Shown here: positions 6,385-29,393 of the stretch, in pieces
Numbering within the stretch: the first letter of the stretch is position 1
Layout of the letters: each line of letters begins with the position of its first letter
Assembly: GCA_965222605.1 (NCBI GenBank)
Contig: OZ244960.1
Span: forward strand, 3,968,001 to 4,032,000
From: Candidatus Latescibacterota bacterium
Lineage (GTDB): Bacteria > Latescibacterota > UBA2968
Length of the DNA stretch: 64,000 nt
Reading direction: 5' to 3'
Made by a program: the position numbers and the translations under genes
The notes under the pieces: generated by a model
Seen by the model: the letters and a program-made list of their open reading frames with translations, nothing else
Databases searched by the model: none
Told to the model about the DNA's origin: nothing

Positions 6385-6487
6385 GTAGGGGACGGTCCCC
6401 GTGCCGTCTCGTGTGTCATCGCGGCATGATTTTAGCCGCGATCCAGTGTTTTTGCCTGTCCATCCGTGTCCATCTGTGGTTGCTTTT
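6385..6487 (+). repeat. REP-like palindrome (GTAGGGG...) plus a 27-bp repeat abutting the start codon
   Basis: gtaggggacggtccccgtgccgtc at 6385; catccgtgtccatctgtggttgctttt (6461-6487) is identical to the reverse complement of 57296-57322. Confidence 0.7.
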
Positions 6488-9400: not shown

Positions 9401-11410
9401 GGAGATGACGAAACAGCACTTGAATGGGCAGAAAAAGCCAGTGAAGGTTTACAGCAAACATCGGGTATGTACACGGGCATATTGCCCCTGGTGTATTGTG
9501 GTATTGGCGTTGCTCTGGCTAAGGCAGGGCGGATTGCGGAGGCTGAACAGGCTTTTGAGCAGGCTATTGAATGCCGAAGAGAATCCAAAGGCGATCACTG
9601 GGCGCGTGCATCGCTGATGGCAGGAGAGTTTTATCTCGAGCGCGATGATATGACAAAAGCGCAAGAGTATCTCGAAGCGGCAAAACAGGCGTTTGAAGAA
9701 ATGGAAATGTCCTACTTTCTGAGGAGAACACAGATGTTATTCAGTCAATTATCTCACGACGAAGATGGTCGCGGCAGGGATGCCGTTCCAATGTTCCAAT
9801 CAGGTGAATCTTCTCGCGGTGAGGACTTGCCTGCTATCGTGCAAGCAGGTGCCGCATCTATTTCTGAGATTTCAGTCGATACGTTGTCCGTTGATCGCCT
9901 GCGCTTGCTTTACGAGGTGAGCCGAGAATTGACTACAGAGCGCGATCTCAAGGTGCTATTGGATCGAGTTTTGGGTAATTTGTTGACTGTCTATCCAGCA
10001 GCAGAGCGGGTGCTTGTTGCAATCAAAAATGAGGCTTCGCAAGGCTTTGTAGTTGATGCGATACGTCACCACAATGTAGAAGCAGATGATTTAGAAGAAT
10101 TGAGTGGGGGTATTATTCGTCGGGTTATTGAGACAAATGAACCTGTTTTGAGCATGGATGCCCAGACAGACGACAGGCTCAATTGGTACCAAAGTGTGAT
10201 CGACTACCACATTCGGTCTGTATTGTGTGTGTCCTTATTTCATGTTGAGGAAGGTGTTATCGGTGCATTGTATGTGGATCATCGCGGCATGGACAACGCA
10301 TTTTCTGATGAAGATCAGACGTTTTTACAGGCATTTGCGAATCTGGTGAGTGTGGCACTGGTCAATGCGAGGATGCACGAACAATTGGAAGAGAAAGCAC
10401 AATATTTGCAGCAAGAGGTCGAAAGACGGTACCAGCTTGGCGACCTGTTTGGACAAAGTGATGCAATGCAGATGGTTTACCAGTTTATCGAACGCGCTGC
10501 AAAGAGTGATATCCCCGTGCTTGTACAGGGCGAAACAGGTACGGGCAAAGAATTGGCTGCGCGTGCCATACACTACAATAGCATACGCAAAGACCAGCGA
10601 TTTTTGTCAGAAAATTGTGCTGCACTGTCACCTGAGTTGTTGCAGAGTGAGTTGTTTGGGCACAAAAAAGGCGCGTTTACTGGGGCGAATGAAGATCATA
10701 AGGGGATTTTTGAGGTTGCCAATGGGGGTACGGTTTTTTTAGATGAAATAGGTGATGCCCCGCCGCAGTTGCAAAGGAGTTTGTTGCGGGTGTTGCAAGA
10801 AGGTGAAGTACGGCGTGTGGGAGAAACTGTAGATCGTGCAGTAGATGTGCGCATTATTGCAGCGACCAATCGAGACTTAAAAAAAGAAGTTGAAAACGGT
10901 TCTTTCCGTGAAGATTTGTATTACCGGTTGCATGTGATTCAGATCGATATGCCGCCTTTGCGAGAACACCTTGAAGATGTGCCATTATTGGCAGAACATT
11001 TGCTCATTCGGGCAAAAGAAGAGTCAAACAAGTCGGTTGGAGGGCTGACAGTGGGTGCAATCAGGGCGCTTACAAGTTACGACTGGCCTGGCAATGTGCG
11101 CGAGTTGGAGAATGAGATTCGGCGTGCGGTTGCATTGGCAAAAGAAGAGGGAGATATTACGCCCGATTTGTTTTCAGAAGCTGTCGGGTACGCAGTGCCG
11201 GATGCTTCTGTCGAATACCACTTGCCTGCGCAGGCGGATGCCCGCACGCAAGCAGGAGGGCGTTTACAAGATCGTATGCAGGAGTATGAGAGACGGTTGA
11301 TTCGAGACGCACTTGAGAGATACAAGGGCAATATTACGCATACGGCTAAAGAACTGGGGGTGGCACGCATTAGCTTGTATAGAAAGATCAATCGTTTGGG
11401 GTTGAGGTAG
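6488..11410 (+). CDS. Sigma54-dependent enhancer-binding activator with N-terminal Ser/Thr kinase, STAND-like AAA ATPase, TPR and GAF domains and a C-terminal Fis-type HTH
   Basis: Kinase GTGGMGEV/ALK/HRDLKPSN/DLG/GTAEYMSPE; P-loop GEAGVGKT; TPR-like helices; GAF (IRSVLCV..GALYVD); bEBP GETGTGKE, GAFTGA, FLDEIGD, WPGNVRELEN; HTH NITHTAKELGVARISLYRK. Confidence 0.93.
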   Translation: MFKIGTIFDKRYQIQAHLGTGGMGEVYRVLDLDQDRECALKILNTMVDQKAAHRRFHREFQVLNRLQHPRLVRTHTWGFAEERPYFTMEYLPGKTLEKIIADQALLARFRASHFFALVQQLAEGLAYIHAQGAVHRDLKPSNIMVLETEEGIETTILDLGLAKFRHLHSVSITQTGATIGTAEYMSPEQGKGFWVDHRSDLYSLGVILYEVLTDAPPFSGQNPISVILKHIREIPPSMSEINIAVSEEIQQVVLKLLAKGAVDRYQSAEEVVRALPSGFVPSDDEQRDVPVKVMRPQFVGRESEMKTLHAMLHDVQAGEQRVVLISGEAGVGKTRLVEELLGDALIHDFLCLKGSGQEEGGQIYGALIDAFQRVKTTDLVGRVPDPVETDKFSVMERWLQLLKSLRQKQPIVLCLEDIQWLDELTLEFLQYVLRDPEPCPFLLCLTCRWSNLEPFSEEVENFIHSNEFAEATHIQLENLPQEEVGYLAASMLGERSIPSDALQALFRETGGQPLFVVEAMRTLVNVDVVRQNVSDDWQWGEFPETLLSDDISEVLYRRITALPAVQQRVLEYACVFLGDFSFELLAEIWRGDELELLDVLDDLVAEGLLTTYGDEKERYRFSQSLCRRAIYDRIQNVRRRLLHREIGNALEDTEDAEELTEELADHFAAAEEQDKAVKYMRLSGKKALAIQAYRQGLRRFEAVRDWTTNDAFESQADAIDFLCDYADVLRNCDQPNRALKLLEEAKALLPDDRNDLKARILNREGSIHSVLQHGAIAEEYMLEALRLYRELDDLDGEIQALGGLAYLCDVSGRHEEAIAYMRREIEKYATLGDAQNKAVLQRREGLFALVGFRFKTAKSHLEATVKTAQQLGLEYHQIWALNLLVRVYFYLGDLNRAEAVCYEVIGEWQKRGVIHLEAVNFLYLGELALERGDFAEALEYAEISAERFLETSRKDYVYRAYAISATAAARMGDDETALEWAEKASEGLQQTSGMYTGILPLVYCGIGVALAKAGRIAEAEQAFEQAIECRRESKGDHWARASLMAGEFYLERDDMTKAQEYLEAAKQAFEEMEMSYFLRRTQMLFSQLSHDEDGRGRDAVPMFQSGESSRGEDLPAIVQAGAASISEISVDTLSVDRLRLLYEVSRELTTERDLKVLLDRVLGNLLTVYPAAERVLVAIKNEASQGFVVDAIRHHNVEADDLEELSGGIIRRVIETNEPVLSMDAQTDDRLNWYQSVIDYHIRSVLCVSLFHVEEGVIGALYVDHRGMDNAFSDEDQTFLQAFANLVSVALVNARMHEQLEEKAQYLQQEVERRYQLGDLFGQSDAMQMVYQFIERAAKSDIPVLVQGETGTGKELAARAIHYNSIRKDQRFLSENCAALSPELLQSELFGHKKGAFTGANEDHKGIFEVANGGTVFLDEIGDAPPQLQRSLLRVLQEGEVRRVGETVDRAVDVRIIAATNRDLKKEVENGSFREDLYYRLHVIQIDMPPLREHLEDVPLLAEHLLIRAKEESNKSVGGLTVGAIRALTSYDWPGNVRELENEIRRAVALAKEEGDITPDLFSEAVGYAVPDASVEYHLPAQADARTQAGGRLQDRMQEYERRLIRDALERYKGNITHTAKELGVARISLYRKINRLGLR

Positions 11411-11549: not shown

Positions 11550-11657
11550 CTTATGTCTGAATGTAATATCTGTAATATACATAGTCCTTAAATTTTATCT
11601 CTTTGTTTTTTAAGCACTTGAGTATCTTCAAGTGTTTTTTTGTGCTGGGACGATTTT

Positions 11658-11673
11658 TGGCACGGATCTTGCA
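11658..11673 (+). promoter_or_regulatory. Sigma54 (-24/-12) promoter
   Basis: TGGCACGGATCTTGCA matches TGGCACG-N4-TTGCW with exact GG-N10-GC spacing. Confidence 0.9.
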
Positions 11674-12065: not shown

Positions 12066-12156
12066 ACTCTGCAAAACCTTGTCCCCGGACCACATCACAC
12101 AATTTTTGCGCGTTAATCGCATATCTTTGGGTTGCCAGTACAGGGTTTTGCAGAGT
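12066..12156. mobile_element. MITE-like element or long hairpin (91 bp)
   Basis: Terminal inverted repeats actctgcaaaacc (12066-12078) and ggttttgcagagt (12144-12156), 13 bp perfect and 15 of 16 extended. Confidence 0.5.
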
Positions 12157-15973: not shown

Positions 15974-17344
15974 ATGAAAATTTGTGTAGTTGGTTTGGGC
16001 CATGTTGGCACTGTGAACATTGCCTACTTGCTTGAACGAGGTCATATCGTCACAGGCTTGGATGTCTCCCAGGAAAGAATCCGCCATCTTTTTGCCGGTG
16101 AACCTGAACCAGAACCCCGCGTAAGCGACCTGCTAAGTTCAGCACTTAGAAGTGGGAGGCTCCAGCTTTCGACTGACTACTTCAAAGCTGTCGAGGAGGC
16201 GAGTGTAGCGATCATCTGTGTAGGTACGCCGCAAGGGGAGAAAGACGGAATACCAAATCTGAGTTTTCTTTATCAGGCCGTAACGTCACTGGTTGAGATA
16301 GTCAACAAGAAAAAAGGCACGTTCGACGTAGTTCTGCGCAGCACTGTTCCGCCCGGGACGACGCGTAATATCGTCTCTGGAGCCTTCGGGAATTTTGGCA
16401 ATGTCTGGTATTACCCGGAGTTCTTGAGAGAAGGAAGCGCAATTGAGGACATGAATGATCCCCCGATACGGATCGTTGGTGCTCCAAAGACTGGTTATTG
16501 TCAGCGCGTGTTAGATATTTACGGTGAGACTGGGCCAGTGTACATTACCGAATACGAAATAGCTGAAATGGTGAAGTATGTATGCAATGCTTTTCATGCC
16601 ATGAAGGTTACTTTCACGAATGAGATATCGAATGTTTGCAGATATCTCGGGATAGACAGCAATAGAGTAATGGAGGTAGTGTGCTCAGACAACAAGCTCA
16701 ATATGTCAAAAGCCTACATGAGGCCGGGATTCGCATTCGGAGGATCCTGTCTCCCGAAGGATCTTACAGCACTCCTGCGGCTATCGAACGGACGACAAGA
16801 ACCCGAATTGCCTCTGCTGACCAATATCATTGTCAGTAATGATCTTCATATCAGATCCACGGTAAGGAGGGTAAGGTCACTTGCCGTTCGAGGAACATTG
16901 GGTATGTTGGGTTTGAGTTTTAAGCCCAATACAGGCGACTTGAGGGATAGTCCGTTCGTAAAACTCGGAAACATGCTCATCTCAGAAGGGTACCAGGTAA
17001 TCGCATATGACCCTTCAGTAGAGTTAGGTCTCCTGGATGTAGGGCAGACTTATATTCAAAGCGATGCCAGAAAGATCTGGCAGGGACAATTGGCCAAATC
17101 CCTCAATTCGCTATGTGAGTGTTCTCTACTTTTGATCGCACATCCCATTTCTTCATTTCATACACCGATTTTACCCATCTTGAAGGGCAAGCATGTTCTT
17201 GATTTGTGCAACGATCCTTTGCGAGAGCAAATCGCTGCTATTGCTGACTATGAAGGTGTGGGCTGGGAATCCCGTTCAGGATGTGTTCGGAATGTAAGCT
17301 TGGCAAAGGCTGAAGAAGCGTTAAAGAACACGTCATATTCATAA
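15974..17344 (+). CDS. UDP-glucose/GDP-mannose dehydrogenase family protein (AlgD-like)
   Basis: VVGLGHVG, ICVGTP, RSTVPPGT, PEFLREG, FGGSCLPKD, GLSFKPNTGDLRDSP. Confidence 0.93.
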   Translation: MKICVVGLGHVGTVNIAYLLERGHIVTGLDVSQERIRHLFAGEPEPEPRVSDLLSSALRSGRLQLSTDYFKAVEEASVAIICVGTPQGEKDGIPNLSFLYQAVTSLVEIVNKKKGTFDVVLRSTVPPGTTRNIVSGAFGNFGNVWYYPEFLREGSAIEDMNDPPIRIVGAPKTGYCQRVLDIYGETGPVYITEYEIAEMVKYVCNAFHAMKVTFTNEISNVCRYLGIDSNRVMEVVCSDNKLNMSKAYMRPGFAFGGSCLPKDLTALLRLSNGRQEPELPLLTNIIVSNDLHIRSTVRRVRSLAVRGTLGMLGLSFKPNTGDLRDSPFVKLGNMLISEGYQVIAYDPSVELGLLDVGQTYIQSDARKIWQGQLAKSLNSLCECSLLLIAHPISSFHTPILPILKGKHVLDLCNDPLREQIAAIADYEGVGWESRSGCVRNVSLAKAEEALKNTSYS

Positions 17345-17426
17345 AAAAGCCGCCGACAGACCCTGGCAAGTCGAGTGTCGGCGGCAGACTGCAGTTCAAA
17401 GCTCAAGCATTTGGGAATGTGAGCTT
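17343..17426. ncRNA. Structured intergenic element A, copy 1 (candidate cis-regulatory or small RNA)
   Basis: Two hairpins, ccgccgaca..tggcaa..tgtcggcgg and gctca-ag-catt-tggg-aatg-tgagc; recurs at 24886 and 27902. Confidence 0.55.
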
Positions 17427-17432
17427 GATAGT

Positions 17433-17461
17433 AAGATATCTTTTGAGGGGCAGGTTGTCAA
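17433..17461 (-). promoter_or_regulatory. Antisense sigma70 promoter pointing into element A copy 1
   Basis: Minus strand TTGACA-17 nt-TATCTT; the transcript would end at the GC hairpin plus U6 (A6 at 17343-17348). Confidence 0.55.
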
Positions 17462-17488
17462 CCATCGTGCAATCGGATATAAAAATTT

Positions 17489-17782
17489 ATGGCAAAAAAC
17501 ACAATAACAATACCTGAGATTGAGAATCAGATTCAAGATTTGGTCCTGAAGGCATTAGATCATGAAGTCACATCTGATAATATAGATTGGAGCGATCTTC
17601 TTTTGATTTCTATACTTGATTCTGTCTCTATCATGGCCCTGGTGACAGGCTTAGAGGATACATTTGACGTGGTCGTAGAGGACGAAGAACTCACAGAAGA
17701 AATGCTAACTTCGACACGTTCGGTAGCGAAGTATATATATGAAAAATTAGCCACTGATGCACATTCGCTCGCTCTCGAATAG
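17489..17782 (+). CDS. Acyl carrier protein
   Basis: Acidic 97-aa protein with the LDSVSIM phosphopantetheine Ser motif and LEDTFDV. Confidence 0.85.
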   Translation: MAKNTITIPEIENQIQDLVLKALDHEVTSDNIDWSDLLLISILDSVSIMALVTGLEDTFDVVVEDEELTEEMLTSTRSVAKYIYEKLATDAHSLALE

Positions 17783-17819
17783 ATCAACGCCAGAAACTAA
17801 CACTGTGAAAGGTTTTTTG

Positions 17820-19724
17820 ATGGAGCATTTTTTTTCTAATTTGACAGGTACAGGTACCCGGGTAGGCGTCATTGATAGCGGTTTTAATACGGGTAAAAAA
17901 AACGTGCATGTGTTGAATGGTACCAGTTTCTGTAATGGCGATGCCCAACCAGATTCAAATTACAAAGATATGATCGGCCACGGAACAGCATGTATTGGCG
18001 TCATCCACACTAAAGTTCCCAATGCAGAATTTTTGCCTGTCAAAATTTTTGAGTCAGAGTTGATAACGACAATGGACATTTTGTGCAAGGCGATTTACTG
18101 GTGTGTTAAACATCAATGTCACATTATCAATTTGAGTTTAGGCACTCTCGATGAGAGCAATAGCGATGTTTTGAAGGAGGCCTGTGATTTTGCATACAAA
18201 CACCATACGTTCATTGTTGCTGCGACATCAAATGATGGACAACCGAGTATTCCCGCGTCTTTTCCCAATGTCTTTGGCGTAGCAGGAGGAAAAGTAGCTG
18301 GAAAATTTGATTACTTTTATGACCCACACGAAAAAATACAGTTTGTCGCACGGGGTGATCGTCAACGTCTGAATTGGCTGGAAGGCAAACAGATATTTAT
18401 GGGTGGATCGAGCTTTGCGGCTCCGCATATTTCTGGCTTGATTGCTCTGATAATAGAGAAATATGGTGGTATCACGCTCAACGATCTGACAGAAATTTTG
18501 AAGCTGCACTCCTTAAGCCAATGTCCCAAGCTGGTAGATAGTAGCACTTATGCGATGAGCGGGATGCCCAGATCTCGCTCAGACGTTTCTATCCGAGACC
18601 TAAATAAGGCAAATACGCCAGGCTGGATAGAAGAGGCTGTTGTTTTTCCATATAACAAAGAAATGCATGGGTTGGTGCGGTTTCGGGAGTTATTGCCATT
18701 TAGGATTACAAGAGTAGTTGACGTTGTTGGAAAAAGAACCATAGGTAAAGATTGTGGGGAGGTTATTGGGGGAGCCGAATCTAATTTGATCATACAACAA
18801 AATTTGGAAGACTGTCTGCAATACGGCGATACGCTCGTTTTGGGTTATTTGGATGAAATTAGCCGGATTAAGAAACGCGATGTGTTACAAGAATCTCTAA
18901 AATTGGCATTGAAGCATAACAAGAACGTTTACAGTCTCAGCCCCATTGCAAATAATCAATACGAAAGCATAAGTAAAGCCTTTAAAGAAAAACATCTGCA
19001 TTGTGCAGCACCAACCATAGATTTTGCAACTTATGAGGCTTTGATCAAAACTTATGATTGGAGAAACAGAAGCCAGAAACCTATCGTGGGCATATTTGGA
19101 ACAGGACCGCAACAAGGCAAGTTCACTGCTCAATTGGCACTGAGAAAACAATTACAGAAAATTGGCTATAAAGTTGGTCAATTGGGCACAGAACATCAAT
19201 CAGCGTTATTTGATTTCGATTTTACATTTCCAAATGGATATGATGGACATCGGAGTATCCAAATCCCCATGGATTTGCACATTCCACTTCTAAATTCTGC
19301 TATGGTCGGTATCGAACAATCAGACCCGGATATTATCGTTGTTGGTGGTCAGTCCGGTATCATACCTCATAGCTTTTACGAAAAATCTCAGAGTTATACT
19401 TTGCCCTCATTGATCTTACTCTTTGGAACTGTTCCCGATGCATATATCCTGCTCGTTAATTCTATCGACGAACCTGAATTTATACAGGAAAATATCCGGG
19501 TGTTAGAGAGCTTCGGGAAGGGCAAAGTGATTCTCCTTGTTTTCAGTGATAAGAAAAAAATTGTTAATGACACTGTTAATACAGTCGTCAACCAGCCGCT
19601 TTTTAGAGAGGAAATTTGTCAAACGATATTGAGTTTGGAATCAATGCATCGCATTCCAGCTACTGAGATAATTAGCGCAGAAGGACGAAAAAAGATGGCT
19701 GATATTGTTATTGATTTTTTCTGA
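17820..19724 (+). CDS. S8 subtilisin-like protease fused to a DUF1611/TIGR04066-like P-loop domain
   Basis: Catalytic triad VIDSG, GHGTAC, GSSFAAPH; C-terminal half FPYNKEMH, GIFGTGPQQGKFT, GQLGTE, DIIVVGGQSG, GTVPDAYIL. Confidence 0.85.
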   Translation: MEHFFSNLTGTGTRVGVIDSGFNTGKKNVHVLNGTSFCNGDAQPDSNYKDMIGHGTACIGVIHTKVPNAEFLPVKIFESELITTMDILCKAIYWCVKHQCHIINLSLGTLDESNSDVLKEACDFAYKHHTFIVAATSNDGQPSIPASFPNVFGVAGGKVAGKFDYFYDPHEKIQFVARGDRQRLNWLEGKQIFMGGSSFAAPHISGLIALIIEKYGGITLNDLTEILKLHSLSQCPKLVDSSTYAMSGMPRSRSDVSIRDLNKANTPGWIEEAVVFPYNKEMHGLVRFRELLPFRITRVVDVVGKRTIGKDCGEVIGGAESNLIIQQNLEDCLQYGDTLVLGYLDEISRIKKRDVLQESLKLALKHNKNVYSLSPIANNQYESISKAFKEKHLHCAAPTIDFATYEALIKTYDWRNRSQKPIVGIFGTGPQQGKFTAQLALRKQLQKIGYKVGQLGTEHQSALFDFDFTFPNGYDGHRSIQIPMDLHIPLLNSAMVGIEQSDPDIIVVGGQSGIIPHSFYEKSQSYTLPSLILLFGTVPDAYILLVNSIDEPEFIQENIRVLESFGKGKVILLVFSDKKKIVNDTVNTVVNQPLFREEICQTILSLESMHRIPATEIISAEGRKKMADIVIDFF

Positions 19725-19755
19725 GATCAAGACCTCAATGATAGGGAAAAAGTAA

Positions 19756-20478
19756 ATGCCAGAAATTCGGAAAATGTCGCTGATTTTAAATATCCTGCTG
19801 TCTGTTTTTATTTTGGTTGCGTTATTCGGGATATGGAAATTGAGAAATACGAACGCTCGTCATTGGGAAGAAATTAGAGAGCTTCGAAAAGTGAACGCAG
19901 ATTATAAGGAGCATATAAACGTCTCTACCTATGCCTCCAATTATCAAGGGCAAGAATTTCCGAAGTTGCAATTGGAGAATATAAATGGCGATTGGATTTC
20001 AACGGACTTTTCTAAAACAGGAAAAGGACTGGTTCTGGTCTTCAAGCCACAAGACTGTCAGCCCTGTTTAATCACGCAGATAAAGTTACTGGAGCATGTG
20101 TACCAAAATCAGGATCCCTCAAAACGCTTTCCAATTTATGCTTTTGCCAATGCTTCTGCAGAAGTGTTGAAAAAATTTAAAAAGAGTTTTGATCTCCATT
20201 ATGAATTGTTTCCGGATACAGAGAACATGTTATTCCAGGATAGAGTACTTACCCATCGTACCCCTGCTATCTTTGTTGTGAACAAAAAAAATATCATAAC
20301 GCATTGTCATTTTCCCTCAAAGGACCGCCCACAAAATACAGTCCTCTTTTTTGGTGTGATTCAAAGACATTTGCCTTTGCAAAAACCACTTCTGAACGAT
20401 CATCTTAAAGGGGTGACCTATTCGCAAATCATTGCCAAAGATTTTGATACTACTCCTTTATCTACATTTATTTATTGA
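19756..20478 (+). CDS. Membrane-anchored thioredoxin-fold redoxin (AhpC/TSA, MauD/ResA-like)
   Basis: N-terminal TM helix, FPKLQLENING, DCQPC motif, TPAIFVVN. Confidence 0.8.
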   Translation: MPEIRKMSLILNILLSVFILVALFGIWKLRNTNARHWEEIRELRKVNADYKEHINVSTYASNYQGQEFPKLQLENINGDWISTDFSKTGKGLVLVFKPQDCQPCLITQIKLLEHVYQNQDPSKRFPIYAFANASAEVLKKFKKSFDLHYELFPDTENMLFQDRVLTHRTPAIFVVNKKNIITHCHFPSKDRPQNTVLFFGVIQRHLPLQKPLLNDHLKGVTYSQIIAKDFDTTPLSTFIY

Positions 20479-20536
20479 TATTTATGAATAATATCTAGCA
20501 TGAAAAACATAGTAAAATATGTTGATTGTCAATACC

Positions 20537-20597
20537 AGAATGGTTTTACTTGAGCCTACCAAGTAAGGTATTCTTATGTGCATGCACATTTTGGCTT
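20537..20597 (+). repeat. Leader element B, copy 1 (5' arm of the inverted repeats around peptide 2)
   Basis: agaatggttttactt...agtaaggt...cttatg...gcaca.ttt shared with 25047-25109. Confidence 0.6.
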
Positions 20598-20623
20598 GAC
20601 TAAAAAGGAAAGGAGGTGATATT

Positions 20624-20848
20624 ATGAAAACTTTGACCAAACCTGTGAAGTCTCGGCTGTCTTCTCCGCGTATTTATGGATATGAAGATAATGGGGGTAA
20701 ATGGAAAGTCGATGGAACATCAATAGTTGAGTATGGGGATCCGGTTGAGACAACGTGGTACTACACTTACTTGGTGTGCGAGTCTGCGACCCAACCCTTC
20801 TGCACCGTAGGCGATTCAGAGACTAAAGCACGTAAAGTAGATCATTGA
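20624..20848 (+). CDS. Putative RiPP precursor peptide 2 (74 aa)
   Basis: Strong RBS AAGGAGGTGA; MKTLTKPVKSRLSSPRIYGY-EDNGGKWKVDGTSIVEYGDPVETTWYYTYLVCESATQPFCTVGDSETKARKVDH; basic leader ending in Tyr, near the S8-DUF1611 gene and ACP. Confidence 0.7.
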   Translation: MKTLTKPVKSRLSSPRIYGYEDNGGKWKVDGTSIVEYGDPVETTWYYTYLVCESATQPFCTVGDSETKARKVDH

Positions 20849-20856
20849 TGTATAAA

Positions 20857-20947
20857 TTCTGTGTTTGATAAAAAAGCAAAGTGTGCAACCATCTTGGTAG
20901 GCTCAAATTTCGTTCGGTGTTCTCGATAAATAGACCGGGGACACCGA
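20857..20947 (+). repeat. Structured intergenic element C, copy 1
   Basis: Homologous to 23600-23687; hairpin tcggtgttctcg/cggggacaccga (20914-20947). Confidence 0.65.
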
Positions 20948-21090
20948 TTTGACGCTGTCAAAAATTTCAACGCCCTTTCTCATAATATCCGAGATATGGA
21001 AAAATACTGAATGATTATTTGAGTGGCGACTTTTACCGACTATATCACAGTTTTTATGCATACCCTTCATTAACAGGATATGGATAACCG

Positions 21091-23586
21091 ATGTTTTTAA
21101 GTTATTTCCGAACATGGTTTCGCAATATCCTCAAGTATAGAACCTATTCAGCCATTAACCTGCTGGGTTTGGGGATAGGAATTGCGTGCTGTTATCTGTG
21201 CGTGCTTTACCTCCTGTATGATTGGAGCTTTGATAGGTTTCACAAAGACCATCATCGCATATACGGCATTGCAGGAAAGGTAAAACACAGTAACGGAATA
21301 ATGGGGAACGGAATAATGGGGATCCCGTTGGCGGGTACATGGGCAGAAATAGCCAGATTTCCTGTTGTATTATCTTCCATGATTTCTGCCGAAGTTCCTG
21401 AGATTGAGACCACGACCCGTGTAAAGTGTGTCCTCGGGACAGCGACCTGGCAAGTAGGTACGCACAAAGAATTTTTGCGACCTATCCAAGAGGTTTTGTT
21501 CGTTGATAGGAGTTTTGGGGCGATGTTTTCCTTTCCTCTTATTCACGGCACGTTCTTCTCGCGACCAGGGCAAGTCGTGATCACACGTAGATTCGCTCAG
21601 ATACTTACCAACGATATTGACAGTTTGATTGGCAAAGTGTTATGGATGCGCGTTGCTTCTCGCAGGTTCGTGAAAGATCTGAAACCCGTATTAGCCCCTG
21701 TTGAAATAGGGGGCATCGTGGAAACCCCGCCCCGCAATTCGAGCCTGAATTTCGAGATTCTTTTGCCATTGAGTATATCCGCAACCTTTCTAAAAAAGAA
21801 AGAAGGCAGGTGGGATTGGCAATTTAGGTGTACACATTATATCCGTTTGACAGATGAAGCAGATGTGGAGGCAGTAGAGAGAAAACTCACGGCGTTCATG
21901 CAGAAGCAGTCCTCTTTCAACTCGCTATGGGATTTAGAGACCTTTCAGGCTAAATTGCAACCCATCACAGAATTGCACCATTATAGAGGTCCGTTTATTG
22001 ATGGTGTGTTCCGCTACACGAATCCCTTATATGGATATATTCTCGGCGGTATCAGTGTATTGGTTCTGGTTATCGCGTGTTTGAATTACGTGCTCCTCTA
22101 TGTGGGGCGGTTCAACTCGCGTACCAAAGAATTGGGCATAAGGCAAATCTTTGGAGCGAGCCGCAGGCACCTCAGGTACCAACTCCTGGTCGAATGCTTT
22201 GGATACAGTCTATTAGCGTGCATCTTAGGCTTGGCAGTCGCAGAGTTGGCATCAAGTCCTCTTGAAGGTGTTTTACGGATTCCTTTCACGTCTTCGGTAG
22301 ATCCCATTCAGACCGCGATTGTTCTCCTAACACTGGCATGTCTGATAGGTCTGGTCACAGCCTTTTACCCAGCAGCCTTTATGTCGTCTGTGTCTGCCCT
22401 CAGCGTTTTGAGCAAAACAGCAAAGGCCGTCGGTTCTGGACTGTTCTTAAAGATATTGATGGCTATCCAGTCCGGTGTGACTTTAGTCTTTGTGTTTTGC
22501 ACGATCATTATCTTCGAACAGACTTTTTTTGTCATCACGGCAGAGCCGGGTTTTGAACCAGCGAATTTGGTCAGGATCAATACCAGTGGGTTGACAGAAA
22601 ATGAGATCAACCGTCTGCAAGCGTCCTTATCTGCATCTCCTCTCGTGACATCCTGTGTGCGGACGAACTTGCCCTTCGGATGGTCAAATGCAATCTTGAT
22701 GAAAGACAGCAGTGATAAACTCATTGATAACATAACCTATTATCAGGTGAAGGGGCCTTTTCTCGAGACCGTTGGGTTGCAACTCGTAAAGGGGAGAACC
22801 TTGCATCCCAACCCCATGCCCGGCGATGTGATCGTGAATGAAGCTTTCCAAAAGCACCTAACATCGCCACAGCCTCTTGGACAGGTGATCACGCAGGCGG
22901 ATACAAAGTTTAGAAGACCCGTGTTTAGCAGCGATGTGAGTGGTCGCATAGTCGGTGTGGTTAAGAATTTTCACGTTAGAAACTTGCGCCACACCGTCCC
23001 GCCGACCATCATCACGATTGCCCCGGATGATGCAACAACTAAGCGACAAGACCTAGAAATATTGATTCGGATTCGAGAAGGTAGTGCGGAAACCTTTGGT
23101 GCGTATCTCAAGGGACTGTGGCAAGACCTCAAAAAGGAGCATCACCTGACGTTTTCCTTTGTAGAAGATGACAGGCGACATTTTTATGCTAAAGAGATCA
23201 ATTGGAGCAAGATCGTCTCTGGCGCGGCCCTGTGCGCTGTCTTCATCGCGTCAATGGGTGCTATGGGCATGATCTCGCTATCCGTGGCTCGCAGAAGAAA
23301 GGAAATAGCCATCCGAAGGGTCATGGGTGCCGTGCCGTCTAAAATAGCCAGTGAGATTGTGTTGAACTACGCGCTGCCCGGGTTTATAGCCGCCGTCATC
23401 GCGCTGCCGCTGTCTTATTTATTTATCCAAGAATGGCTCTCGATATTTGCCTACCGCTTTCAATTTGGGGTTGGGACTATTTTGGTGACGCTCTTATTGG
23501 GTATTCTGCTTCCACTGATATGTGGTTTCGTACACGCGCTAAAGGTGGCTTCTGCAAATCCAATAGATGCCCTTCGAGAGGACTGA
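21091..23586 (+). CDS. FtsX/MacB-like ABC permease (duplicated MacB_PCD/FtsX domains)
   Basis: YSAINLLGLGIGIA, IACLNY, RTKELGIRQIFGA, RRKEIAIRRVMGA, NPIDALRE. Confidence 0.9.
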   Translation: MFLSYFRTWFRNILKYRTYSAINLLGLGIGIACCYLCVLYLLYDWSFDRFHKDHHRIYGIAGKVKHSNGIMGNGIMGIPLAGTWAEIARFPVVLSSMISAEVPEIETTTRVKCVLGTATWQVGTHKEFLRPIQEVLFVDRSFGAMFSFPLIHGTFFSRPGQVVITRRFAQILTNDIDSLIGKVLWMRVASRRFVKDLKPVLAPVEIGGIVETPPRNSSLNFEILLPLSISATFLKKKEGRWDWQFRCTHYIRLTDEADVEAVERKLTAFMQKQSSFNSLWDLETFQAKLQPITELHHYRGPFIDGVFRYTNPLYGYILGGISVLVLVIACLNYVLLYVGRFNSRTKELGIRQIFGASRRHLRYQLLVECFGYSLLACILGLAVAELASSPLEGVLRIPFTSSVDPIQTAIVLLTLACLIGLVTAFYPAAFMSSVSALSVLSKTAKAVGSGLFLKILMAIQSGVTLVFVFCTIIIFEQTFFVITAEPGFEPANLVRINTSGLTENEINRLQASLSASPLVTSCVRTNLPFGWSNAILMKDSSDKLIDNITYYQVKGPFLETVGLQLVKGRTLHPNPMPGDVIVNEAFQKHLTSPQPLGQVITQADTKFRRPVFSSDVSGRIVGVVKNFHVRNLRHTVPPTIITIAPDDATTKRQDLEILIRIREGSAETFGAYLKGLWQDLKKEHHLTFSFVEDDRRHFYAKEINWSKIVSGAALCAVFIASMGAMGMISLSVARRRKEIAIRRVMGAVPSKIASEIVLNYALPGFIAAVIALPLSYLFIQEWLSIFAYRFQFGVGTILVTLLLGILLPLICGFVHALKVASANPIDALRED

Positions 23587-23599
23587 TATGAAAATTTGC

Positions 23600-23687
23600 T
23601 TCTGTTCGGTAAAAAAACAGTGTGCTACCGATCTTAATAGGCCGCAACTTGACTTGGTGTTCTCGGTAAACAGGCCGGGAGTACCGA
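23600..23687 (+). repeat. Structured intergenic element C, copy 2
   Basis: Hairpin ttggtgttctcgg/ccgggagtaccga (23654-23687); substitutions relative to copy 1 retain pairing through G-U on the + strand. Confidence 0.65.
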
Positions 23688-23715
23688 GCCTATGATAAGG
23701 AAAGGATGATGATTT

Positions 23716-24807
23716 ATGAATCGCAAAAAGTTATTGGTTTCCGTGAGATGGCTGACACTCCTCCTTTTGATCTGTGGAAGTTGCCAAAAAAGTACTGTTG
23801 AAAACCAGCAAGATGGGGTCGCTCTCAAGGTGCAAGCACAAGGTGCCCAACTTTCATTGATTGATGCCATTACCCTTGAACGGTCAGAGGCAAGGCCAGC
23901 TCTCGGACGTGTCCGTTCCATTACTGTTTTGGAGAACTATATCATTATTGTAGATGCCATGAGAGAAAGTGTCGAAGTTTTTGACAAGGAGGGCAGCTAT
24001 AAGTGGTCTATTGGTAGTCGCGGGGATGGAGAAGGTCAGTACAAGAGCCCGAGCGAGCCAACAATTATCCCCAATACCGACCAAATGCTGATCTATGATG
24101 GGGGGCAGGTGCTTATCTTCTCGATTCAAGGAGAATTTTTAGGGCAGGTAAAGCTGCCAGAGAGACGCTTTATTAATCGCATGGCGGTTTCTGATGAGCA
24201 CAATCTCATTCATACTTATCTTGACAAAAACCAAAACGGTATGCTTTGTGTCACCTCCCTTGAAACTGGTGAAGACCTCGCCAAGTTCAAAGTTAGCGAG
24301 TCTCAATACGAACACTTATTTTTTGGTTTGCAGAGTTTCCAAGGGCTTGCTTATGACGAGATACAGAGAATGATATATTTTGCCTTGCCCTGGGAAGAGA
24401 AGGTTATGCGAATTGATTTGGCAACACAGGAATTTTTGACCCCCATAGTCATAAATCATCCCAAATTTGTCAGCCTCAAATTAGATGAAATAGATGATAG
24501 CAAAGATATTAGAGAATTATCCCAACACAGGTTCAGCAGATTGAACAGCATGTATCTCTTGTCTTCGAGCGATATTTTGCTCAATTACCAGTTCTGGGAT
24601 TCGTCAATGAGTACCGCGCTTATACTTTTATCAGGCTTGGATATGCAGCCATCGGCGCAAGAAGTGAAAAATGAATTGGGGTACAATATTTTTACTTGTT
24701 ATGGAAAATCTATATATATGTATTCGTCTTCCACTGATGGCGAAGATACAAATGGGAGAATTCGTGTCTATCGTCTGACGGAACCTCAAGAAGCCCCTAC
24801 CGGATAG
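23716..24807 (+). CDS. 6-bladed beta-propeller (NHL-like) lipoprotein
   Basis: Lipobox ICGSC; VFDKEGSYKWSIGSRGDGEGQY motif. Confidence 0.8.
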   Translation: MNRKKLLVSVRWLTLLLLICGSCQKSTVENQQDGVALKVQAQGAQLSLIDAITLERSEARPALGRVRSITVLENYIIIVDAMRESVEVFDKEGSYKWSIGSRGDGEGQYKSPSEPTIIPNTDQMLIYDGGQVLIFSIQGEFLGQVKLPERRFINRMAVSDEHNLIHTYLDKNQNGMLCVTSLETGEDLAKFKVSESQYEHLFFGLQSFQGLAYDEIQRMIYFALPWEEKVMRIDLATQEFLTPIVINHPKFVSLKLDEIDDSKDIRELSQHRFSRLNSMYLLSSSDILLNYQFWDSSMSTALILLSGLDMQPSAQEVKNELGYNIFTCYGKSIYMYSSSTDGEDTNGRIRVYRLTEPQEAPTG

Positions 24808-24885
24808 TGGTGAGAGTCAGGCCGTGTTCGAGTGTCTCTTTATCACAAAGTTAAAATTGAAGTGGCAAAAGTGTTAATATAAATA

Positions 24886-25041
24886 GCCGCTGATATACCT
24901 TGGCAAGTCGAGTGTCGGCGGTAAGAACAGTGTACAACCGCTGGCTGGCAATCCCTGATAGATTCGGGCGGTGTACAACTGCGCACGCGTAGCACAACGT
25001 CAGTATAGCAGTTCAAAGCTCAAGCATTTGGGAATGTGAGC
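24886..25041. ncRNA. Structured intergenic element A, copy 2 (long central insert)
   Basis: tggcaagtcgagtgtcggcgg and gcagttcaaagctcaagcatttgggaatgtgagc identical to copy 1, separated by a longer insert. Confidence 0.55.
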
Positions 25042-25046
25042 ATGAG

Positions 25047-25109
25047 AGAATGGTTTTACTTTTACTGGAGTCCATCGAGTAAGGTGCGTCTTATGCATAC
25101 GCACACTTT
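25047..25109 (+). repeat. Leader element B, copy 2
   Basis: Homologous to 20537-20597; directly follows element A copy 2 and precedes the ABC exporter. Confidence 0.55.
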
Positions 25110-25127
25110 AAGTTATTTACATTACGG

Positions 25128-26906
25128 GTGAATATGAAAAAAAAAATTAACAAATTCATCTCAGCAACTTTTTATATCTCTAAGAATAGACATGTCTTTT
25201 ATCATTTTTTAAAATTTCTGAAACCTTATTGGGTACAGCAAAGCGTTGTTTTCGTTCTCATGCTCTTGGGGACTGTTAGCTCGCTGGCCTTTCCTTATAT
25301 CATGAAAATTATTATTGATGACGTGTTTCCAAACAAAGACTATGAATTATTTATATTTATTTTGCTTCTGCTCTTGGGCATTACAGTAGGTAATATCATT
25401 ATTGGTTTTTGTTCAAACTATTTATTTTCTTGGATAAACAATCGCATTATGCTGGATATAAGGAGCCATCTTTTTGACCACTTAATCCAGTTGCCATTGA
25501 GCTTTTATGATCGCAATAAATCTGGGGATATTGTTTATAGAATGAGCAACGAAGTGGATAGGATACAGTCGTTTATCACTTCGAGTGCTTTGAATCTTAC
25601 GCATAGCTTGTTGACACTCATAGGGCTTACTGTGGTTCTCTGCTGGTTGAACTGGCAACTCTTCTTGGCTTCTATTATTGTGATACCCTTTCTGGTACTC
25701 AATATTCGCTATTTCCAGCCTAAAATAAGAGATATTACAGAACGAGGACGAAAGAAAGGCTCTGAAGTTATGAGCTATTTGATTGAGCGATTTGAGACTG
25801 TCCAATTGATTCAGGTCTATAATGCCTATAATTATGAAAACAATAGATTGTGGTCGCAGCTAAATGATCTTCTGGATATCAATATGCAAAATGTAACCTA
25901 TTCTGGCGTGATGAGATCGATTTCGAGATTTTTCACATCCCTGACACCTGCGATCATTTTGGGCTGGGGAGGCCACAAAGTCATGTTGGGCGTCATAAGC
26001 TTGGGGGCATTAGTCGCTTTTTTGCAATACCTGTCGCGCCTTTTTGAACCATTTAGAAATCTCAACCATCTTTATGTAGAACTTATCCGTGTATCTGTTT
26101 CAATGAAGCGGGTATTCGAGTTTCTCGAGATTGATATTCAGGAATGGTCCGACTCGTCTGTCACCCGTCCTTTTTCTTTTGAAAAGGAGATAGCGTTTAC
26201 CGACCTCAATTTTGGATATAACGGACAACCCGTTTTGCAGGACTTCAGCTTGAGACTTGAGAAAGGAAAAAAATATGCTCTGGTAGGGTCAAGCGGTTGT
26301 GGCAAGAGTTCATTGGTAAATTTGCTGTGTCGTTTTTATGAATCGAATACAGGTGCGATTACTATTGATCACATACCGATTACCCATATCAAACTGTATG
26401 ATCTGAGAGAGCATATTGGTCTGGTAACTCAGGAAAATCAAGTTTTTCATGATACAATCTGGGACAATATCCGATACAGCAAGCCGAACAGTACGCCTGA
26501 AGAGGTCCATAGAGCGATCAGGATAGCTGGTTTGGATGGATTTATTGAGAAGGCTGAAGATGGTGCGCTTACGCTTGTCGGTGATCGCGGGAACACACTT
26601 TCGGCTGGTCAAAAGCAGCGTATTGCCATTGCGCGTGCAATTTTGAGAGACTCGGATATTTTGATCCTGGATGAAGCTACGTCGGCACTGGATTCTGAAA
26701 GCGAAGGTGAAATTATAGCAAATTTACAGGATCTATATGAAGATAAAACGATGATTGTGATTAGCCACAGACTCAGCACGATCCAGCAGGTAGATGAGAT
26801 TATCTGTTTGGATGAGGGGAGAGTTGTGGAGCAAGGAGCACATGAAGAGTTGTTGGAGAAGAAGGGACATTATTGGCGTCTTTTTCGCAAGCAACTTATC
26901 GCATAG
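25128..26906 (+). CDS. ABC exporter, fused TMD-NBD (no C39 peptidase domain)
   Basis: Six-TM N-terminal half; GSSGCGKS, LSAGQKQR, ILDEATSALD, ISHRLS. Confidence 0.95.
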   Translation: MNMKKKINKFISATFYISKNRHVFYHFLKFLKPYWVQQSVVFVLMLLGTVSSLAFPYIMKIIIDDVFPNKDYELFIFILLLLLGITVGNIIIGFCSNYLFSWINNRIMLDIRSHLFDHLIQLPLSFYDRNKSGDIVYRMSNEVDRIQSFITSSALNLTHSLLTLIGLTVVLCWLNWQLFLASIIVIPFLVLNIRYFQPKIRDITERGRKKGSEVMSYLIERFETVQLIQVYNAYNYENNRLWSQLNDLLDINMQNVTYSGVMRSISRFFTSLTPAIILGWGGHKVMLGVISLGALVAFLQYLSRLFEPFRNLNHLYVELIRVSVSMKRVFEFLEIDIQEWSDSSVTRPFSFEKEIAFTDLNFGYNGQPVLQDFSLRLEKGKKYALVGSSGCGKSSLVNLLCRFYESNTGAITIDHIPITHIKLYDLREHIGLVTQENQVFHDTIWDNIRYSKPNSTPEEVHRAIRIAGLDGFIEKAEDGALTLVGDRGNTLSAGQKQRIAIARAILRDSDILILDEATSALDSESEGEIIANLQDLYEDKTMIVISHRLSTIQQVDEIICLDEGRVVEQGAHEELLEKKGHYWRLFRKQLIA

Positions 26907-26909
26907 GGA

Positions 26910-27419
26910 ATGGAACTGGTGAGTGTAGAATTTCGCAATCCTGACATAAAATTAGTTCTTCTGCGTGCATTGGTTATTCAAATTTTGGGAATAGGCGCAG
27001 GATTGATTTATACTGTTATTTTTAGTGAACAGCTTTTGTTCGGCGAGGTTGAAACCTTTGAAAAACAAGATGATATAACGTATGTCTCTTTAGAGGCACT
27101 TCAAAATGTAATTCAATCGAAATCAAAAATACTACTCATTGATGGACGATCTGAATCAGCTTATCACGAAGGCCATATTCCAGGGGCTGTGAACGTACCG
27201 TATATTCAGCGTGATTATTTTTTTAAAAAACTTTTGGCTGATATTGCCCGCGAGACACCAATAATTGTCTATTGTTCCGGAAAGAATTGTAATACCAGTG
27301 TCAAATTGGCGAGGTCTCTGTCAGGGGAATTTGGATTTATACATGTTCGAGTTTTTAAGGGAGGATGGGAGGAATGGGTAAAGGGTGAAAATCCGATTCA
27401 AACGAGTTTTGACAGATGA
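26910..27419 (+). CDS. Membrane-anchored rhodanese-like protein
   Basis: IDGR, GHIPGAVNVP, VYCSGKNC, GGWEEW. Confidence 0.85.
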   Translation: MELVSVEFRNPDIKLVLLRALVIQILGIGAGLIYTVIFSEQLLFGEVETFEKQDDITYVSLEALQNVIQSKSKILLIDGRSESAYHEGHIPGAVNVPYIQRDYFFKKLLADIARETPIIVYCSGKNCNTSVKLARSLSGEFGFIHVRVFKGGWEEWVKGENPIQTSFDR

Positions 27420-27883
27420 TTATACCTTCTAAATTAGCATGGATAGGAACCGTGATCCGGATATTTCTGGGGGTTATTCTCGGATGGGCTGGGGTTGTAA
27501 AAATCCGTAATCCTGAAGCATTTATTAAAATTGTGAGAGCCTACAATTTGCTACCTGAGGAATTGGGCGTGCTATGGGGAATTTTCTTGCCCTGGATTGA
27601 GCTTGTGACAGGTTTATTTTTAATTTCAGGTTTGTGGCACAAGAGTGCTGTGCTCAGTAGCTCTGGTCTTTTTTTAGCATTTGCAGCAGCAGTCGGCATT
27701 AATATTCTCCGCGGTGCAGATATCGCCTGTGGTTGTTTTGGGTTCAATGACACCAATTTGTATGTTGTGTTGTTCCAGGCCCTGGTCTTCTTGCTTTGCT
27801 GTTATTTTTTGTTTTTTCTGAAATCTACACCTTATTCTATGGACCATTGTCTTTTTACTTCTCAAAGAGGTGGACTTTCGTAA
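27416..27883 (+). CDS. MauE/DoxX family membrane protein
   Basis: RIFLG..AG..K, LPWIELVTG, IACGCFG. Confidence 0.9.
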   Translation: MIIPSKLAWIGTVIRIFLGVILGWAGVVKIRNPEAFIKIVRAYNLLPEELGVLWGIFLPWIELVTGLFLISGLWHKSAVLSSSGLFLAFAAAVGINILRGADIACGCFGFNDTNLYVVLFQALVFLLCCYFLFFLKSTPYSMDHCLFTSQRGGLS

Positions 27884-27901
27884 AGTATTCCCATGCAAAA
27901 T

Positions 27902-28002
27902 CCGCTGACAGGCCCTGGCGAGTCGAGTGTTGGCGGCAGACTGCTATCCCCGCATGAGGTAAGCAGGGGCAGTTCAAAGTGCAAGCATTTGGGAATGTGA
28001 GC
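27902..28002. ncRNA. Structured intergenic element A, copy 3 (short palindromic insert)
   Basis: ccgctgacaggccctggcgagtcgagtgttggcggcagactgc...cagttcaaagtgcaagcatttgggaatgtgagc. Confidence 0.55.
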
Positions 28003-28115
28003 GTGACCAATTCAAAATATCTAATTATGGTAGTAGAAGGATAGTTGTGTGCCTCGAAGAACTAAGATCAGCATAAAATTTTAATGTATGGCCAATATCA
28101 ACTCATTTAAGAGGT

Positions 28116-29393
28116 ATGGTTTTGAGAACAGTTTTGATGATCACACAAAAATTTCCTCCTTTTAATGGTGTTGGGATTCTGCGGGTTACCAAATTCGTGA
28201 AGTATATTCAGGAGTTTGGATGGCGACCTGTTGTTCTGACTTGCAAACGAAAAGAAAATCATTTAGACGCTGTGGATGAAAAACTGTTAGATGGTGTTCC
28301 GAAAAATTTAAGCATTCATCGGGTAAATGCCCCTTCCCTGTACGACGTTTACAGACTAATAGGCGGACGGGCAAAACAAGGCTCTTTTTCTTTGTCTAAA
28401 AATTCTCTGGCTACTTTAATCCGATCCTTATTTGTACCTGACCAATATGTCGCCTGGTATTTTACGGGTGTACGTAAGGCGAAAGAGATTTTCCAGGTGG
28501 AGAATATAGACGCGATCTATTCTACATCTCCTCGTGAAACATCACATCTGATTGGACGAACGCTCCATCTAAAATATAAGTGTCCTTGGATAGCCGATTT
28601 TAGGGATCCCTGGATCGAGAAACAACACCGTCCAAAACGTATCCAGCCTCTCGAACAGTTCGAGAAGTACTTAGAAAAAATTGTGCTTCGCGATGCAGAT
28701 TGCATTCTTGCTGCCTGGCCCGGTATTGTCCGAAGTTTTGAGCCTGCTGTAGAGGAGAAATCGCAAGTTTTGACTAATGGATTTGATGAAGAAGACTTCA
28801 GAGGTCTAAAGCCTCATGTGTTCCCAAAATTCACTTTTTTGTATGCCGGATCACTTTTTAAAGAATTGTCACCCCTACCAATGTTCGAAGCATTGGATAT
28901 GCTGCTGCGAATACGTCCAAAACTACGACAAAGAATTCAATTGGTCCTCTTGGGAAGGCAAGATGCATTTATTCGAGATACGATAACAAAATACGAGTTG
29001 GAATCTTGTGTACATATCATCCCACAAATACCGCACAGAGAATGTTTGCAGTACATATTGGGAGCTGATGTATTGACTTTTTCTGTACCAGATAAACAGT
29101 GGATCCCCAGCAAAATTTTTGAGTACTTAAGAGCCAGCAGACCCATACTGGCAATAGCAGACCAGGATTCAGACGCTGTACAGATTATCGCGCGTGTAAA
29201 CCAGGGTTTATGTTTCGCAAGCCGAGATCCTGAGCATATAGCACGTTATATGTCAAATTTAGTGCGAAATCGCGAGGTTTCGGATTGTGGGATTCAAAAC
29301 AATAGGCAACTCTGGGAGTTTGAACGAAGACAGTTAGCAAAACAGCTTGCTCATACCCTTGATACGCTCGTCAATCAGGTTTATAGGAAATGA
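28116..29393 (+). CDS. Glycosyltransferase family 4
   Basis: FPPFNGVGILR, WIADFRDPW, TNGFDEED, PSKIFEYL. Confidence 0.9.
   Translation: MVLRTVLMITQKFPPFNGVGILRVTKFVKYIQEFGWRPVVLTCKRKENHLDAVDEKLLDGVPKNLSIHRVNAPSLYDVYRLIGGRAKQGSFSLSKNSLATLIRSLFVPDQYVAWYFTGVRKAKEIFQVENIDAIYSTSPRETSHLIGRTLHLKYKCPWIADFRDPWIEKQHRPKRIQPLEQFEKYLEKIVLRDADCILAAWPGIVRSFEPAVEEKSQVLTNGFDEEDFRGLKPHVFPKFTFLYAGSLFKELSPLPMFEALDMLLRIRPKLRQRIQLVLLGRQDAFIRDTITKYELESCVHIIPQIPHRECLQYILGADVLTFSVPDKQWIPSKIFEYLRASRPILAIADQDSDAVQIIARVNQGLCFASRDPEHIARYMSNLVRNREVSDCGIQNNRQLWEFERRQLAKQLAHTLDTLVNQVYRK

Follow-up and report, generated by a model that had tools for sequence, protein, structure and literature searches.

The untranslated regions on the two sides of a gene for a 74-aa precursor peptide, here called peptide 2, are complementary to each other over a long range in a Candidatus Latescibacterota genome, and the comparison of homologous copies suggests that their pairing is probably a selected structure of the sense-strand RNA. 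As a whole, the explanation that we favour on balance is a 5′-3′ UTR stalk in the sense transcript that would mark off and stabilise the mRNA of the precursor. The element lies in the 64-kb stretch of DNA that was analysed here (the window) and consists of the following parts:

20537-20549, + strand: conserved block AGAATGGTTTTAC, adjoining the 5′ arm of the outer helix upstream, near-invariant in nine copies
20550-20563, + strand: 5′ arm of the outer helix H1, exact complement of 20893-20906
20567-20569, + strand: bridge GG(U), pairs with (A)CC at 20888-20890 and joins H1 to H2 in the MFE fold and in RNAalifold
20583-20597, + strand: 5′ arm of the inner helix H2, pairs with 20874-20887
20609-20848, + strand: Shine-Dalgarno AAGGAGGTG and 74-aa precursor peptide ORF, inside the stalk loop
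20874-20887, + strand: 3′ arm of the inner helix H2, where the conserved 3′ block begins
20893-20906, + strand: 3′ arm of the outer helix H1, partner of 20550-20563
20914-20947, + strand: 3′ hairpin (hairpin 3), a conserved 12-bp stem (20914-20925 / 20936-20947) without a U-tract

An inverted-repeat search returned the H1 arms as 14-nt segments that are 329 nt apart and 100% complementary, with all letters and coordinates as given in the original prediction of a 14-nt exact inverted repeat. The nested inner pair that had been placed inside this repeat is also present at its coordinates, with one G-U pair and one bulged G; as a helix it is real in the window and conserved in only four to five of nine copies. 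The peptide-2 ORF extends from the ATG at 20624 to the stop codon at 20846-20848, and a strong Shine-Dalgarno is located seven bases upstream of it. The MFE fold of 20530-20950 (-121.5 kcal/mol; z -2.52; 1 of 100 shuffles equally good) uses both helices and hairpin 3 and loops out the ribosome-binding site together with the ORF. The further hairpin that was expected behind the stalk was found at 20914-20925 / 20936-20947, starting 7 nt downstream of it. For the block at 20537-20549, no complement was found in the 3′ block. This block may be a promoter or transcript-start region, and a transcription start within the 5′ arm would leave a shorter helix.

The exact 14-mer by itself is weak evidence. 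H1 is the sole exact inverted repeat of at least 14 nt within a span of 20-600 nt in the 64-kb window, and 36 of 300 block-shuffled windows held at least one exact 14-nt inverted repeat. A sliding duplex scan of 60 nt against 300 nt, which gave -42.6 kcal/mol here and averaged -38.5 (sd 8.5) across 254 placements, was uninformative because long targets yield low energies everywhere. The 47-nt 3′ block forms a duplex of -42.6 kcal/mol with its own 5′ UTR, and none of 300 random 81-nt segments of the window reached this value with the same block (-20.1 ± 3.8, best -32.6). From the window alone, pairing beyond chance is at most marginal and only suggestive. Because the pairing is conserved in all nine homologous copies that have both flanks, we consider it to exceed chance. 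Neither the window nor the 6.3-Mb genome contains a second copy of the peptide-2 element.

Homologues were searched for by protein in 61 related genomes and by DNA in 31 genomes of the family. Relatives of peptide 2 were confined to the window's own genus (Candidatus Latescibacterota), where the DNA search found them in 8 of the 20 other genomes and the 3′ block alone in 7 of the 20; a contig-level search yielded five loci, all of which had previously been found. The set of copies having both flanks comprises the window, G002, G017 (two), G011, G005, G013 and G007 (two). Arms conserved as complementary pairs around different peptide cores had been proposed as the decisive check at homologous loci, and these nine copies from eight genomes indeed have complementary outer arms around strongly different cores, which are 33-42% identical to the window peptide. 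Conservation is much higher in the arms than in the coding core that they enclose. Because the 5′ block is conserved also outside its paired parts, it presumably has some further role. A tenth copy, in G001 (L041, 1490-1850), is a decayed gene with an in-frame TGA that has lost the start, the ribosome site and the 5′ arm and in which both 3′ arms and hairpin 3 are intact. In one of the two copies of G017 (G017a), the 3′ arms are located about 240 nt farther from the stop codon than in the other copies and are still intact.

The exchange of a core was seen directly in run X3, which comes from another sample. A close relative in this run has 180 other letters replacing the core at 20689-20869, with the 5′ UTR, the leader and the 3′ block kept around them, which shows core turnover between fixed flanks. 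The breakpoints of the swap correspond to the border between leader and core (20689) and to the start of the 3′ block (20869), not to the repeats. A further X3 variant carries 762 extra letters at 20507-20516. Among the 23 runs listed for this locus, none was an RNA run.

The pairing was evaluated across an alignment of the nine regions with both flanks (A2), in which 86.2% of 362 cells were paired, compared with 31-44% when the 3′ partners were slid by 1-3 columns. Cells changed on both sides numbered 11 (5.7 ± 2.2 in shuffles, with 6 of 500 reaching 11) and the covariation score was 0.156 (0.132 in shuffles, with 15 of 500 reaching the observed value), in a shuffle control that ignores the relatedness of the nine sequences. 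Independent compensatory events number about three to four among these nine related sequences, and we regard the statistics as supportive, not overwhelming.

In individual columns, H1 is paired in 9/9 copies and in 91% of its cells overall, its 12-bp core is unpaired in 1 of 108 cells, and double changes occur at three of its pairs. At column 41/598, five copies have C-G and four have U-A. Column 43/596 is U-A in seven copies, U-G in one (G002) and C-G in one (the window), a series that would represent the classic route via a wobble pair. Both copies of G007 (G007a and G007b) carry matching single-nucleotide insertions in the two arms, at positions that mirror each other, as well as two extra pairs, which extend the helix to 17-18 bp. 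Without a supplied structure, RNAalifold returned H1, the GG/CC bridge, H2 and hairpin 3. The bridge (columns 51-52/587-588) is GC in 5-6 copies, GU in 2-3 and broken in one of nine, and hairpin 3 (pairs 612-623/640-651) shows compensatory changes at four pairs. In single-sequence ensembles, the mean pair probability of H1 was 0.80-1.00 in 9/9 copies across loops of 300-520 nt. The MFE structures contained H2 fully in four of nine copies, partly in one and not at all in the other four, and hairpin 3 in seven of nine. Overall, the outer helix measures 14-18 bp and the inner helix, where present, 7-10 bp. A search of 17000-28500 on both strands against Rfam gave no matches at E ≤1.

Read from the complementary strand or as duplex DNA, a G-U pair turns into A-C. 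The stalk cells comprised 179 Watson-Crick, 14 G-U, 2 A-C and 5 other combinations, with G-U in eight stalk pair columns and A-C in two, and hairpin 3 had 20 G-U compared with 3 A-C cells. The excess of G-U over A-C therefore points to selection on the sense transcript, not on the DNA. A second region of the window bears on the same question:

25047-25133, + strand: paralogous 5′ UTR before the ABC exporter gene, 71% match to 20537-20592

This 5′ UTR is preceded by the same type of upstream block as peptide 2 (AGAATGGTTTTAC), contains segments like H1 and H2, and has homologues in G002, G017 and G011. A complement of its arm is absent throughout the window at up to 3 mismatches. Of the 14 positions, 4 and 9 differ in the partnerless arm among G000, G002 and G011, compared with only 1 and 2 in the peptide-type arm of the same genomes. 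As an arm without a partner that drifts faster, the ABC-type sequence is a natural control for the stalk. Pairing in trans between the 3′ block and the 5′ UTR of the ABC gene was considered as well and rejected, because 26 of 300 random segments reach its score of -25.0 kcal/mol.

The family defined by peptide 2 is small. Its leader, MKTLTKPVK..IYGYE, and two Cys that are 7-8 residues apart (C-x7-8-C) are invariant in 13/13 family members, and the remaining core is variable. Peptide 2 itself is hydrophilic, with charged and polar residues, and no Pfam or NCBIfam family match was found for it. Only seven clusters of the family were present among 5.8 billion proteins, and five additional members (P0002-P0005, P0007) are represented by their proteins only. 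A metagenome search by protein pattern gave 42 pattern matches with no relatives of peptide 2 among them, and one with a ribosome-binding-site DNA pattern, which was too generic, listed unrelated loci, with an arm or IYGYE in none of the 120 screened. In G019 (L042, L046, ~1500-1905), we observed genes for two paralogous small secreted Cys- and acid-rich proteins that have a 20-nt ribosome-site region in common with peptide 2 but lack its arms.

The peptide-2 gene is part of a two-part gene array on the + strand. The upstream part starts with a 1669-aa ORF (6401-11410), which we take, from its translation and by motif recognition without a family scan, to be a Ser/Thr kinase with a large central region, a sigma-54 activator and a C-terminal DNA-binding end. 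This ORF is located directly upstream of the sigma-54-driven peptide 1, which follows behind a consensus sigma-54 promoter. Next come a QhpD/SCIFF-like radical-SAM/SPASM maturase, sugar enzymes and an acyl carrier protein, and the last gene encodes a QhpE-like subtilase fused to a TIGR04066/DUF1611 domain. The part containing peptide 2 begins with a TlpA/AhpC-like redoxin, peptide 2 and an FtsX/ADOP permease, which are followed by a DUF5128 six-bladed propeller, the ABC exporter, a rhodanese and a MauE/DoxX protein; the neighbourhood of peptide 2 is a peptide-export and redox cluster. In the second copy of G017 (G017b), the 5′ arm begins about 25 nt past the stop codon of the upstream gene, and the end of hairpin 3 is about 35 nt from the next gene in most copies. 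Because the gaps to the neighbouring genes are short, the peptide-2 cistron is placed inside an operon-like array, whose narrow spacers the stalk would occupy.

Two other kinds of repeat were noted in this array. A 13-nt exact inverted repeat (12066-12078 / 12144-12156) lies downstream of peptide 1, with one arm on each side of the start listed for the radical-SAM maturase gene, and may be an attenuator between precursor and enzyme. A composite intergenic repeat occurs at ~17345-17425, ~24885-25045 and ~27900-28005 and consists, in this order, of an A-run, a strong GC hairpin (GCCGCCGACAG..CTGTCGGCGGC) and a near-invariant block of about 35 nt (CAGTTCAAAGCTCAAGCATTTGGGAATGTGAGC). It is found in 11/21 genomes, with 3-5 occurrences per cluster and only near the peptide-2 cluster, and in several genomes directly upstream of the peptide-2 5′ UTR. 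This repeat may be a promoter, operator or processing module.

Conventional signals at the flanks of peptide 2 were considered and rejected. A sigma-54 promoter or activator site at the 5′ arm had the spacing GG-N10-GC in only four of nine copies and a poor -12 element, and no conserved sigma-54 promoter was found upstream of peptide 2 in the nine copies. For a sigma-70-type promoter, the sole + strand hits overlap the Shine-Dalgarno and the start codon and cannot drive the gene; the same scan gave promoter-like hits on the minus strand as well. Hairpin 3 is not an intrinsic terminator: its tail is U-rich in none of the copies, and the scan scored no + strand terminator. Elsewhere in the window, 11608-11673 contains a hairpin (AGCACTTGA..TCAAGTG) with a T-run and then, after 24 nt, a consensus sigma-54 promoter, TGGCACG-N4-TTGCA, that precedes peptide 1. 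This module of hairpin, T-run and sigma-54 promoter is repeated 2-8 times per genome in 21/21 genomes of the genus and often carries a peptide-1-like gene. Owing to the T-run behind it, the palindrome at peptide 1 is to be read as a terminator-like RNA hairpin and not as evidence for an operator. A loose genome-wide count of the palindrome motif gave 340 strand hits, or about 170 sites, which is near a rough chance estimate.

The long-range duplex ranks first among the explanations weighed, and its main rival is a pair of independent local hairpins, each with a 6-bp stem and a 5-nt loop, whose arms would be complementary only through their origin as inverted copies. In that case, the 5′ hairpin would stabilise the end of the transcript, like the one of the ABC-type UTR, and its 3′ counterpart would act as a stabilising or terminator-like structure. 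Each arm is a near-palindrome of the form ACTTGA-N5-TCAAGT, whose self-folding competes with the stalk, the ABC-type 5′ UTR retains the element without any partner, and similar, terminator-like ACTTGA..TCAAGT elements with a T-run are present in the peptide-1 modules of the same genome. However, the loop positions covary between the arms (column 41/598), and the insertions in G007, which the local model makes two unrelated loop events, break or enlarge the hairpins while the long-range pair is kept. The U-to-C change of the window at column 43 spoils the palindrome of the arm and preserves the long-range pair, and complementarity in mirrored order extends to the GG/CC bridge and H2. In addition, the ensemble strongly favours the long-range helix and the palindrome decays in the ABC-type copies, and we consider the local hairpins an unlikely explanation. 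The same near-palindromes, 17 bp long with 6-bp half-sites typical of dimeric binding sites and present in two 5′ regions of the cluster, might instead be two DNA operators that flank the gene and bind a dimeric regulator, possibly looping the DNA, with arms that co-vary to fit one protein. This is quite improbable in view of the asymmetry of 14 G-U to 2 A-C cells and of a complementarity that spans the non-palindromic spacer as well as H2 and GG/CC in mirrored order. The change in the window makes each site asymmetric with the pairing between the arms kept, the only regulator gene among the neighbours scanned is the distant kinase/sigma-54 activator, and the sigma-54 spacing GG-N10-GC, with its -12 element poor, is present upstream of only four of the nine copies. 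At peptide 1, the palindrome that resembles the arms precedes a T-run and is terminator-like.

Inverted repeats that bracket a whole small gene, and a core that has been swapped between strains with breakpoints near conserved flanks, would also suit a mobile or invertible DNA cassette in which the repeats are inversion sites or the terminal repeats of a small element. Yet orientation and syntenic place are identical in 9/9 copies, the contigs of four runs, which can miss rare forms, contained no strand-switch joint, the element is single-copy in the genome, and the neighbours scanned included neither a recombinase nor a transposase. The swap breakpoints at 20689 and 20869 are inside the arms and not at the repeats, which leaves such a cassette very improbable. 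Two special forms of it were rejected separately: a MITE or small mobile element, with one copy in the 6.3-Mb genome, always at the same site and with no duplication evident beside the arms, and an invertible DNA switch, with inverted copies in 0/9 and no recombinase among the scanned neighbours. It is likewise hardly credible that the complementarity is due to chance or is a neutral relic of an inverted duplication without present function. The frequency of exact 14-nt repeats in shuffled windows (36/300), the unexceptional sliding duplex energy and the retention of the 3′ arms by the decayed gene of G001 speak for this view; against it, the arms are far better conserved than the intervening coding core, compensatory changes keep the pairing in 9/9 copies, and 0/300 random segments pair as well with the 3′ block.

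Returning to the UTR stalk, both flanks of the peptide-2 gene would form a long-range duplex in the sense transcript, consisting of H1 and continuing in about half the copies via a 2-bp bridge into H2, and the ribosome-binding site and the ORF would be looped out by it. Such a stalk would set the precursor cistron apart as an RNA unit of its own within the multi-gene cluster. Given that the pairing is a selected sense-strand structure, we regard a role in end-protection, in RNase III processing or in both as likely, with the remaining probability going to other roles of the RNA. The paired ends would be shielded from 5′-end-dependent endonucleases and 3′ exonucleases, and the stalk would offer a double-stranded site to RNase III. 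A cut by RNase III would free a stable mini-mRNA and leave a short paired stub, and hairpin 3 would then become a 5′ cap-like hairpin of the downstream RNA. The predicted outcome is an excess of the precursor peptide over the export or redox proteins. The genome encodes RNase III (TIGR02191, 250 bits, above the cut-off), RNase E/G and two RNase Y.

The fit of the stalk to RNase III differs between copies. An RNase III substrate has about two helical turns, i.e. about 20 bp or more, with internal loops allowed. H1, the bridge and H2 together amount to about 23-29 bp in four to five of the nine copies; in four, the stalk has only 14-18 bp, which is short for RNase III and counts against the cleavage reading. 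The ORF of G005 ends directly at the inner arm, with 11 nt between its stop codon and the outer arm, and ribosomes that terminate there would disturb the stalk. The Shine-Dalgarno is not paired within the stalk, which ends at least 12 nt upstream of it, and the predicted partners of the Shine-Dalgarno are not conserved. Because the ribosome site is not part of the stalk, the stalk is unlikely to be a translational lock.

A bolder version, which we regard as unlikely, is a cassette that works at two levels, with an RNase III-released, long-lived and end-paired mini-mRNA on the one hand and invariant flanks that serve as DNA homology arms for the exchange of cores on the other. These flanks would be the 5′ UTR with the leader, and the 3′ arms with the hairpin. 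If this were true, one structure would serve both the high expression and the rapid diversification of a secreted peptide.

RNase III stalks are known to flank functional RNAs such as the 16S and 23S rRNA precursors and the intercistronic sites of phages T7 and lambda. The peptide-2 stalk resembles them in that distant flanks pair, in that the stem has internal loops and in that the enclosed unit is looped out. The rRNA stalks enclose rRNA, whereas the predicted peptide-2 stalk encloses a 74-codon mRNA, and its helix is continuous over 14-18 bp and reaches about 25 bp including the inner helix in about half the copies. The 5′-3′ long-distance pairing of type I toxin mRNAs (fbi/tac in hok; aapA1) provides a second parallel, in which the UTR ends of an mRNA with a short ORF pair and the ORF is enclosed. 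Unlike the products of those mRNAs, peptide 2 is hydrophilic with a leader and two Cys and is encoded in an export/redox cluster, and its stalk does not sequester the Shine-Dalgarno. The original analogy to type I toxins does not hold on these points: the peptide is not hydrophobic, and neither the Shine-Dalgarno nor the start is sequestered by the stalk.

Regarding a possible purpose, two reports describe RNA elements within operons. In cip-cel, stem-loops are linked to the selective processing and stabilisation of operon RNA (PMC10311766), and the mccA terminator is presented as an RNA element favouring a peptide-antibiotic precursor over enzymes (PMC4231749). Like the peptide-2 stalk as proposed here, both are RNA structures beside one cistron that set its level relative to its operon neighbours; they are described as local hairpins at one end of a cistron, whereas the ends of the peptide-2 message would pair together. 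In sponge-associated Latescibacterota, ranthipeptide and QhpD-type radical-SAM peptide clusters have been listed as antiSMASH types only, according to the accessible part of the account (PMC12993501). The phylum and the habitat label are the same, and the genes of the window include those for a QhpD/SCIFF-like maturase and a QhpE-like protease; that part of the account mentions neither RNA structure nor the peptide-2 family. A term search of an open-access subset of the literature turned up no account in which the two UTRs of a peptide-precursor gene pair with each other. By analogy, the peptide-2 element appears closest in form to the RNase III stalks of rRNA and phages and to the fold-backs of type I toxin mRNAs, and in purpose to operon processing and stabilisation and to mccA.

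We know of no cultured members of the phylum Latescibacterota and of no RNA biology in it. The peptide-2 element appears to be an unusual conserved architecture that is limited to one genus, and we infer its function. Clusters for peptide natural products need far more precursor than enzyme, for which local hairpins or separate promoters are the solutions known so far. A precursor mRNA whose two ends are paired would meet this need in another way. As a compact element with flanks of about 90 nt, it could be transferred onto other small genes, and for annotation, its invariant frame may serve to flag hypervariable peptide genes that are barely detected by protein searches.
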